Assembly (NCBI RefSeq): GCF_056712565.1
Contig: NZ_CM160072.1
Direction: 5' to 3' (one strand)
DNA: 64,000 nt
Below, piece after piece: positions 3,001 through 6,000 of this stretch. The position numbers were made by a program. How positions within the stretch are numbered: the first letter of the stretch is position 1; every line of letters starts with the position of its first letter.

Positions 3001-6000
3001 ATGACGGTCTGGTATACCGCGCTTGTGGTGGCGGGCAGCACCGTGCTCGGGCTGGCCGTGGCGATGTTTTTCAACCGCGAGTTCCGCCTGCGCAAAACCG
3101 CGCGTTCGCTGGTGATCCTTTCCTACGTAACGCCGTCTATTTCGCTGGTGTTCGCCTGGAAATACATGTTCAACAACGGTTACGGCATTGTGAACTACCT
3201 CGGCGTCGATCTTCTGCATCTCTATGAGCAGGCACCGCTGTGGTTCGATAACCCGGGCAGTAGTTTTGTGCTGGTGGTGCTGTTCGCTATCTGGCGCTAC
3301 TTCCCGTATGCCTTTATCTCGTTTCTGGCGATTTTGCAGACCATCGACAAATCGCTGTACGAAGCGGCAGAGATGGATGGCGCGAATGCCTGGCAGCGGT
3401 TTCGCATCGTCACGCTGCCCGCGATTATGCCGGTCCTGGCGACGGTGGTGACCCTGCGCACTATCTGGATGTTCTACATGTTCGCGGATGTTTATCTGCT
3501 GACGACCAAGGTCGATATTCTCGGTGTCTATCTCTACAAAACCGCCTTTGCCTTTAATGACTTAGGGAAAGCGGCGGCGATCTCGGTGGTGCTTTTCATC
3601 ATTATTTTCGCTGTCATTCTGCTGACCAGGAAACGGGTGAACCTCAATGGCAACAAATAAACGCACACTCAGTCGAATCGGTTTTTACTGCGGGCTGGCG
3701 CTGTTTCTCATCATCACGCTGTTTCCATTTTTTGTGATGCTGATGACCTCGTTCAAGAGCGCAAAAGAGGCGATCTCGCTGCATCCTACGCTGCTGCCAC
3801 AGCAGTGGACGCTGGAGCATTACGTCGACATTTTTAATCCGGTGATTTTCCCGTTTGTCGACTACTTCCGTAACAGCATGGTGGTGTCGGTGGTTTCATC
3901 CGTGGTGGCGGTATTTCTCGGCATTCTCGGGGCTTACGCGCTTTCCCGCCTGCGCTTTAAAGGGCGGATGACCATCAACGCCAGCTTTTACACGGTGTAC
4001 ATGTTCTCCGGCATTTTGCTGGTGGTGCCGCTGTTCAAAATCATCACCGCACTTGGCATTTACGACACCGAGATGGCGCTGATCATTACCATGGTGACGC
4101 AAACCCTGCCCACCGCCGTGTTTATGCTGAAAAGCTACTTCGACACCATCCCTGATGAGATCGAAGAAGCGGCGATGATGGATGGCCTCAATCGTCTGCA
4201 AATTATCTTCCGTATCACCGTGCCCCTGGCGATGTCCGGGCTGATATCGGTGTTTGTCTACTGCTTTATGGTGGCGTGGAACGACTATCTGTTTGCGTCG
4301 ATTTTCCTCTCCAGCGCCAGCAATTTCACCTTACCAGTGGGCCTGAACGCGCTGTTCAGTACGCCTGATTACATCTGGGGACGGATGATGGCGGCCTCGC
4401 TGGTGACCGCATTGCCAGTGGTGATTATGTATGCGCTTTCGGAACATTTTATTAAGAGTGGTTTGACCGCCGGTGGCGTGAAGGGCTAAAGCGGCCAGTT
4501 TCTTTACAAGGAGTTTTACATGAAAAAGTTAGTAGCCACAGCACCGCGTGTTGCTGCGCTGGTTGAGTATGAAGAGCGGGCGATTTTAGCCAATGAAGTG
4601 AAGATCCGCGTGCGTTTCGGCGCGCCGAAACACGGGACGGAAGTGGTTGATTTCCGCGCCGCCAGCCCGTTTATTAATGACGACTTTAATGGCGAATGGC
4701 AGATGTTCACCCCGCGTCCGGCAGATGCGCCGCGCGGCATTGAGTTTGGCAAGTTCCAGCTTGGCAACATGGTGGTTGGCGACATTATCGAGTGCGGCAG
4801 CGACGTTAACGACTACGCGGTGGGCGACAGCGTATGCGGCTACGGCCCGCTCTCCGAGACGGTCATCATTAACGCAGTGAATAACTACAAGCTGCGCAAA
4901 ATGCCGCAAGGCAGCTCCTGGAAAAACGCCGTCTGCTACGACCCGGCGCAGTTTGCCATGAGCGGCGTGCGCGATGCCAACGTACGCGTAGGGGATTTTG
5001 TGGTGGTGGTAGGGCTTGGCGCGATCGGTCAAATTGCCATCCAACTGGCGAAACGCGCTGGCGCATCGGTGGTAATTGGCGTCGATCCTATCGCCCATCG
5101 CTGTGATATTGCCCGTCGCCACGGTGCGGATTTCTGTCTTAACCCCATTGGCGCTGACGTAGGTAAAGAGATCAAAACGCTGACCGGCAAGCAGGGTGCC
5201 GATGTGATTATCGAAACCAGTGGCTATGCCGACGCGCTGTAATCGGCACTCCGCGGTCTGGCCTATGGCGGCACCATCTCCTATGTCGCGTTTGCCAAAC
5301 CGTTTGCCGAAGGTTTTAACCTCGGACGCGAAGCCCATTTCAATAACGCCAAAATTGTTTTCTCCCGTGCGTGCAGCGAGCCGAACCCGGATTATCCGCG
5401 CTGGAGCCGTAAGCGTATTGAAGAAACCTGCTGGGAACTGCTGATGAACGGTTATCTCAATTGCGAAGATTTAATCGATCCGGTGGTGACCTTTGCCAAC
5501 AGCCCGGAAAGCTACATGCAGTATGTCGACCAGCATCCGGAACAGAGCATCAAAATGGGCGTCACGTTTTAATTCAAAGGAATGAAAAGAATGAAAATCG
5601 GCACACAGAATCAGGCGTTCTTTCCGGAAAACATTCTGGAGAAATTTCGTTATATCAAAGAGATGGGTTTCGATGGTTTTGAGATTGACGGCAAACTGCT
5701 GGTCAACAATCTCGAAGAAGTCAAAGCAGCAATCAAAGAAACCGGTTTACCGGTGACCACCGCCTGCGGTGGCTATGACGGTTGGATTGGCGACTTTATC
5801 GAAGAGCGTCGACTTAATGGCTTAAAGCAGATCGAACGCATTCTTGAAGCGCTGGCAGAAGTGGGCGGTAAAGGTATCGTCGTTCCGGCTGCGTGGGGCA
5901 TGTTTACCTTCCGCTTACCGCCGATGACCTCGCCGCGCAGCCTTGACGGCGATCGTAAAATGGTGAGTGATTCCCTGCGCGTACTGGAACAGGTCGCCGC

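Follow-up and report, generated by a model that had tools for sequence, protein, structure and literature searches.

A premature stop codon in ycjQ shared by a branch of Escherichia coli ST95

The gene examined here has its closest described counterpart in ycjQ of Escherichia coli K-12 (b1313), whose product is named D-guloside 3-dehydrogenase in RefSeq, next to 3-dehydro-D-guloside 4-epimerase for YcjR and D-glucoside 3-dehydrogenase for YcjS. The enzyme roles of ycjQRS go back to two studies, one by Mukherjee et al. (2019) and one by Mabanglo et al. (2020), to which PMC13053599 and PMC11543891 refer. Losses within this operon have precedents: The ycjV/ymjB pseudogene of K-12 is likewise lineage-specific but affects another gene in another lineage, whereas a 5-bp TAACC duplication, found on 174 contigs (P0013/L012), frameshifts ycjQ itself, such that the same gene is lost through a different kind of mutation, again in another lineage. 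In the stretch of DNA analyzed here (64,000 nucleotides of contig NZ_CM160072.1, termed the window), the counterpart of K-12 ycjQ is interrupted by an in-frame TAA (Table 1).

Table 1. Positions of ycjQ, its premature stop and the neighboring ycj genes in the window.
Feature	Coordinates	Strand	Evidence
ycjN, ycjO, ycjP (binding protein and two permeases of an ABC transporter); intact genes of the operon, upstream of ycjQ	1466..4489	+	
ycjQ pseudogene, full ancestral frame (350 codons + stop)	4520..5572	+	100% identity to ycjQ of ATCC 11775 and S88
Truncated product, coding part (240 aa): N-terminal GroES-like catalytic domain and the Rossmann NAD-binding domain up to about its 73rd residue	4520..5239	+	ORF list, Pfam
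Premature TAA, codon 241; T at 5240 in place of ancestral C (CAA, Gln241)	5240..5242	+	Comparison with NU14, MS8345 and K-12
3' part of ycjQ cut off by the stop (109 sense codons + natural stop), now untranslated	5243..5572	+	
ycjR, 3-dehydro-D-guloside 4-epimerase, intact; has a separate ribosome-binding region (AAAGGAA) past the stop of ycjQ	5591..6379	+	
ycjS, D-glucoside 3-dehydrogenase, intact	6389..7444	+	
ycjT (kojibiose phosphorylase), pgmB/ycjU, ycjV-type ABC ATPase, ompG; downstream part of the operon, could suffer polarity	7441..12410	+	

The ycjQ locus and its premature stop

A sequence-only reading of the window had identified the gene as ycjQ, and the assignment holds: It occupies the same slot in the ycjMNOPQRSTUV-ompG cluster, and 344 of the 349 comparable residues are those of K-12 b1313. 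Gene order is as in K-12, with ycjQ flanked by ycjP and ycjR and the psp operon upstream of the cluster. Near-identity to K-12 YcjQ extends over the full length of the gene; 40 of 1,053 nucleotides differ, and besides the stop there are five amino acid changes (E19D, N53D, D54E, N97T and A212T), none of them past residue 212. When the stop is repaired, the protein contains the NAD-binding domain typical of medium-chain (zinc-type) dehydrogenases, with Pfam ADH_zinc_N (NAD-binding Rossmann) covering residues 168-289 (E = 4.6e-26). Searches of NCBIfam and PDB returned generic MDR relatives only, with no YcjQ-specific model at cut-off and no solved YcjQ structure, the best PDB relative being threonine dehydrogenase 2dfv (E = 1.4e-15). 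The locus and K-12 YcjQ thus correspond in gene, cluster position and dehydrogenase domain, but codon 241 is CAA in K-12 and TAA in the window, which leaves the first 240 of 350 residues. Because this TAA breaks what would otherwise be an uninterrupted 350-residue frame, the locus is, as judged from its sequence, the ortholog of K-12 ycjQ in pseudogene form.

The position of the stop, as originally read, proved right in both coordinates and arithmetic. On the plus strand, the ORF that opens with the ATG at 4520 runs for 240 codons up to the TAA at 5240-5242, and translation of 4520-5572 in this one frame yields 351 codons with stops at codons 241 and 351 only. As also claimed, the frame stays open for 109 codons past the stop, and the amino acids encoded there are exactly those of K-12 YcjQ. 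The proposal that a single base change at a Gln codon (CAA to TAA) separates this allele from an intact one could be settled by comparison with other strains: The ST95 strains NU14 and MS8345 have a ycjQ that is one base away from that of the window, with C at 5240 (CAA, Gln), and codon 241 of K-12 ycjQ is CAA as well. With the NU14 and MS8345 alleles one base away, the lesion is a single C-to-T transition. Outside 5240, the ycjQ of the window is 100% identical to database alleles, which, with one substitution, makes chance a moot question; the first 11.5 kb of the window contain three differences from NU14.

Distribution and origin of the allele

We searched 5,426 complete E. coli genomes with a 41-mer centered on the T at 5240, designed such that each 28-base megablast seed must contain the variant base. 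This probe matched 32 genomes, at 100% throughout, including the type strain of the species, ATCC 11775, and JCM 20135, S88, APEC O1, MS7163, SF-088 and SF-468 as well as several avian isolates of types O1:K1:H7 and O2:K1:H7; the same 41-mer with C matched 281 genomes, and the C version on the K-12 haplotype 2,200. The exact 240-residue product is present on at least 1,000 contigs (NCBI, ENA, JGI and Logan) and has been deposited, for example, as ABJ00765.1 from APEC O1. In the PGAP annotation of ATCC 11775 (EAS44_RS13750), S88 (ECS88_RS08465) and MS7163 (MS7163_RS07865), the gene is listed among the pseudogenes and carries the remark "internal stop". Sequence and stop in ATCC 11775 and S88 are identical to those of the window, whereas MS7163 combines the same stop with a missense change, G87D (GGC to GAC at codon 87), that has no counterpart in the window. 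Aligned with ATCC 11775 (CP033092.2) over its full 64 kb, the window shows two mismatches and two one-base indels, an identity of 99.994%. The recurrence of the stop in independent assemblies, together with intact alleles that a single mutation separates from it, marks a genuine nonsense pseudogene and not an assembly artifact. The stop in ycjQ is real, in all probability clonally inherited and predicted to abolish function, and had previously been annotated in RefSeq; its novelty is low: A full-text literature search on ycjQ returned no paper discussing the pseudogene, but the fact is present in public annotation.

The 1,053-nt ycjQ stretch matches 4,985 of the 5,426 complete genomes, with no match in the other 441, and is at least 99% identical to the window in 165, of which 32 have the TAA. 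Genomes with a 99.9% identical ycjQ that are nonetheless off the TAA list include NU14, IHE3034, UM146, PMV-1 and APEC O18, and likewise IMT5155, SF-173, SF-166, PA45B and MS8345; direct inspection of NU14 and MS8345 confirmed the intact protein, WP_000737377.1. UTI89 appears on neither the TAA list nor the listing of ycjQ at 99% identity or above. S88 equals the window over 3020-7072, and the two have in common a T at 6673 that is not in NU14. S88, APEC O1 and MS8345 form a discrete ST95 clade apart from UTI89, IHE3034, UM146 and PMV-1 (PMC6180223), and in Gordon's scheme S88 is placed near subgroup D and APEC O1 in subgroup C (PMC6337857). The simplest reading would be one origin within the clade of S88, APEC O1 and MS8345, after MS8345 had split off, followed by clonal inheritance. 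By this account, a spontaneous C-to-T transition at 5240 would have converted Gln241 (CAA) into an ochre stop (TAA) in the ancestor of one ST95 sublineage, that of ATCC 11775, S88, APEC O1 and the avian O1/O2:K1:H7 strains, and the allele would then have been handed down clonally. The TAA allele looks young, with 27 of its 32 copies at 100% identity along all 1,053 nt of the gene; the G87D change that MS7163 carries on top of the stop fits relaxed constraint, as a single case. The allele is a lineage marker within ST95 and not a strain-private lesion, and the T at 5240 offers a handy single-base character by which this ST95 branch can be told from NU14, IHE3034, UM146 and MS8345.

The same nonsense mutation also occurs on other haplotypes. 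A TAA probe built on the K-12 haplotype matched one genome, S19-141 (CP075640.1, L007 801-1853), whose ycjQ carries Q241*, differs from that of the window at 49 positions and is annotated as having an "internal stop"; look-ups of a second, K-12-like 240-residue product (P0003) led to contigs L008-L011. Q241* is thereby found on at least four haplotypes that lie 31-49 nt per kb apart: the window or ST95 type, that of S19-141 with L010, that of L008, and that of L009, whose ycjQ is 2 nt from K-12. Haplotype-specific SNPs flank the mutated base on both sides, at distances of 1-17 nt. Because these SNPs are so close to the site, the occurrences of Q241* on different backgrounds represent independent mutations, and recombination as the means by which the stop spread between lineages was rejected.

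Consequences of the stop and competing explanations

The expectation that the truncated product would lack much of the dehydrogenase domain was borne out: The last third of the protein is gone, and the cut falls inside ADH_zinc_N. The alignment with 2dfv places Q241 in the helix next after strand DVIIETSG (DV(I/F)xExSG), with more Rossmann strands downstream. The architecture of medium-chain dehydrogenases is such that the chain returns to the catalytic domain with its C-terminal ~60 residues. A product of 240 residues, without the last Rossmann strands and without the segment that returns to the catalytic domain, would not attain an active fold; since part of both domains is missing, it should be inactive as well as unstable, and on its domain content the truncated YcjQ is almost certainly inactive. 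The first in-frame ATG, GTG or TTG past the stop is codon 309, from which a restart fragment would be at most 42 residues long. A split gene with a separately expressed C-terminal part was rejected, there being no in-frame start before that codon.

The genes ycjN, ycjO, ycjP, ycjR, ycjS, ycjT and pgmB, the ycjV-type ATPase gene, ompG and ycjW are intact in both the window and ATCC 11775, so that a defect would be expected in guloside oxidation alone. The YcjQ step of the YcjQ/R/S pathway can soundly be predicted to be lost: The strain would fail to convert D-gulosides to 3-dehydro-D-gulosides, the first step of the conversion of gulosides to glucosides by YcjQ, YcjR and YcjS, while YcjR, YcjS, the transporter, two phosphorylases and OmpG would remain intact. 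The stop also leaves 348 nt of untranslated mRNA ahead of ycjR, including a stretch with C in excess of G (C/G up to 1.67 at 5273-5350), and these ~350 nt of newly untranslated message may reduce expression of ycjR through ompG by Rho-dependent polarity. Such an effect is possible, the counterpoint being that ycjR has a ribosome-binding site of its own. The TAACC duplication in ycjQ, the ycjV/ymjB pseudogene of K-12 and the 441 genomes without a ycjQ match together suggest that selection on the cluster is weak. A working D-guloside 3-dehydrogenase would be lacking in the E. coli type strain and in a set of ST95 pathogens, which is of little import beyond bookkeeping, except that work on the ycj pathway or its natural substrate in ATCC 11775, S88 or APEC O1 would probably meet a broken first step.

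The best explanation overall, and in our judgment very probably the right one, is an inherited single-base loss of ycjQ that is clonal in a branch of ST95 and yields an inactive product. The sequence-only reading had allowed for a sequencing error at the stop, and assemblies do carry errors of a single base, of which a deletion at 57526 of the window, found in none of the 5,426 complete genomes, may be an example. However, the TAA recurs in 32 independently assembled complete genomes from differing laboratories, hosts and platforms, at least 1,000 contigs encode precisely the truncated protein, PGAP calls the pseudogene, and the window, whose four other differences from CP033092.2 suggest another assembly of the type strain or else a strain very near to it, still reads TAA. 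The count of genomes and contigs leads us to reject sequencing or assembly error, and that the true codon is CAA and the gene intact is vanishingly improbable. It is also extremely improbable that the stop is bypassed, through ochre suppression, readthrough or recoding, such that full-length YcjQ is still made. The 109 codons past the stop are wholly intact and in frame, as bypass would have it, but an intact downstream frame is expected of a young mutation, and 27 of the 32 alleles are unchanged over 1,053 nt. Of the termination contexts of E. coli, TAA followed by T, as in this case, is the most efficient, the stop showed no sign of a recoding signal, and MS7163 adds a missense change of the kind that relaxed constraint permits, albeit in a single case. 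Moreover, approximately 99% of ycjQ-bearing genomes match no TAA probe (by the probes used, the stop is in 33 of the 4,985 complete genomes with ycjQ), and all intact alleles that were inspected have a sense codon; a stop so rare is not a conserved recoding site.

The remaining alternatives accept the loss of ycjQ and differ from clonal, near-neutral inheritance in what brought the allele about or made it common. S19-141 and the Logan/ENA contigs L008-L011 raised the prospect that codon 241 is a mutational hotspot or that its truncation has been selected repeatedly, by convergent evolution, since Q241* stands on at least four haplotypes between which transfer by recombination is ruled out by the closely linked SNPs. 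There are 15 codons in ycjQ that are one transition away from a stop, and as a control we looked up, in a collection of 15 billion proteins, the exact truncated products of ten other transition-type nonsense sites on the K-12 amino acid background. All ten exist, each on 21-124 contigs (Q80* on 68, Q130* on 124, Q144* on 27, Q171* on 27, Q175* on 30, Q225* on 23, Q334* on 40, W134* on 79, W295* on 21 and W305* on 26), compared to 25 for Q241* on the same background, and there is no Dcm site (CCWGG) at the mutated C. With no excess over equivalent nonsense sites, codon 241 is typical and its recurrence reflects sampling depth; both hotspot and convergent selection were rejected by this control and are very improbable. 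The ST95 allele, on at least 1,000 contigs, alone stands out, and does so because of clonal expansion. Whether that expansion owes anything to the allele is a separate matter: Inactivation of YcjQ, or dampening of ycjR through ompG by polarity, could benefit the extraintestinal or avian lifestyle of the ST95 sublineage. An adaptive loss would agree with the appreciable frequency of the allele in a successful pathogenic clone and with the damage that the ycj cluster has sustained elsewhere (ycjV/ymjB in K-12, the 5-bp duplication on 174 contigs, and ycjQ undetected in 441 of 5,426 genomes). But the neutral decay of a dispensable, normally repressed operon, joined with clonal hitchhiking, predicts the same pattern; the remaining ycj genes of the lineage are all intact, the ten-site control gave no nonsense excess at codon 241, and two close ST95 relatives, NU14 and MS8345, succeed as pathogens with their ycjQ intact. 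We therefore regard an adaptive loss as unlikely, and consider it a shade less likely still that the ST95 branch of types O1/O2/O45:K1:H7 owes some of its success in birds and in extraintestinal infection of humans specifically to the loss of YcjQ, perhaps joined by a polar reduction in the expression of ycjR through ompG. Under clonal inheritance of a single-base loss, the allele would most likely have become common through neutral or near-neutral loss in a rarely used, repressed operon, combined with the success of the clone. In very large collections, the same nonsense mutation recurs on unrelated backgrounds by sampling alone, and recurrence is not to be equated with a hotspot or with selection unless a site-by-site control is at hand.

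Other sites in the window

At codon 241 of the K-12 haplotype, an imperfect inverted repeat that we noted by eye (GCGCTG-CAAT-CGGCGC) would bring the C into the loop of a hairpin; the haplotype of the window has a weaker version of this repeat (CGGCAC). Further downstream in the operon, the ycjV-type ABC ATPase gene (10378-11460) is intact in the window and is represented in K-12 by the ycjV/ymjB pseudogene pair.

The sole base substitutions between the window and CP033092.2 are at 16012 (T vs. A) and 47355 (T vs. C). Of the two indels, that at 57526 is one A fewer in the window and splits an 8.3-kb autotransporter adhesin gene (53070-61384, plus strand), intact in CP033092.2 as WP_015952995.1, into ORFs at 53070-57545 and 57560-61384. 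A 41-mer across this deletion matched none of the 5,426 complete genomes, so that it is private to the assembly and may be an assembly error. Within the same gene, at ~53700-57200, off-diagonal BLAST hits reveal internal repeats in a long array; the repeats have diverged to 85-94% identity and are offset by multiples of ~440 nt. The other indel, at 51955, is one T more in the window, where ydbH (49539-52178, plus strand) forms an intact ORF of 879 residues; RefSeq lists ydbH as "frameshifted" in CP033092.2, and because the gene is intact in the window, that pseudogene call is probably an error of the record and not a property of the strain.

A gene for a DHA2-family MFS efflux permease (31669-33183, plus strand) is also labeled "frameshifted" in CP033092.2 (equivalent to 31669-33124); the sequence of the window is identical there and reads as an ORF of 504 residues. 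The stretches 39399-39757 and 40984-41585 of the window cover two further features, each in keeping with the annotation of CP033092.2. Fragments of an integrase and of a DUF1627 gene beside ttcA are the scar of a lost prophage at the site occupied by Rac in K-12, and a metal ABC transporter permease gene is frameshifted.
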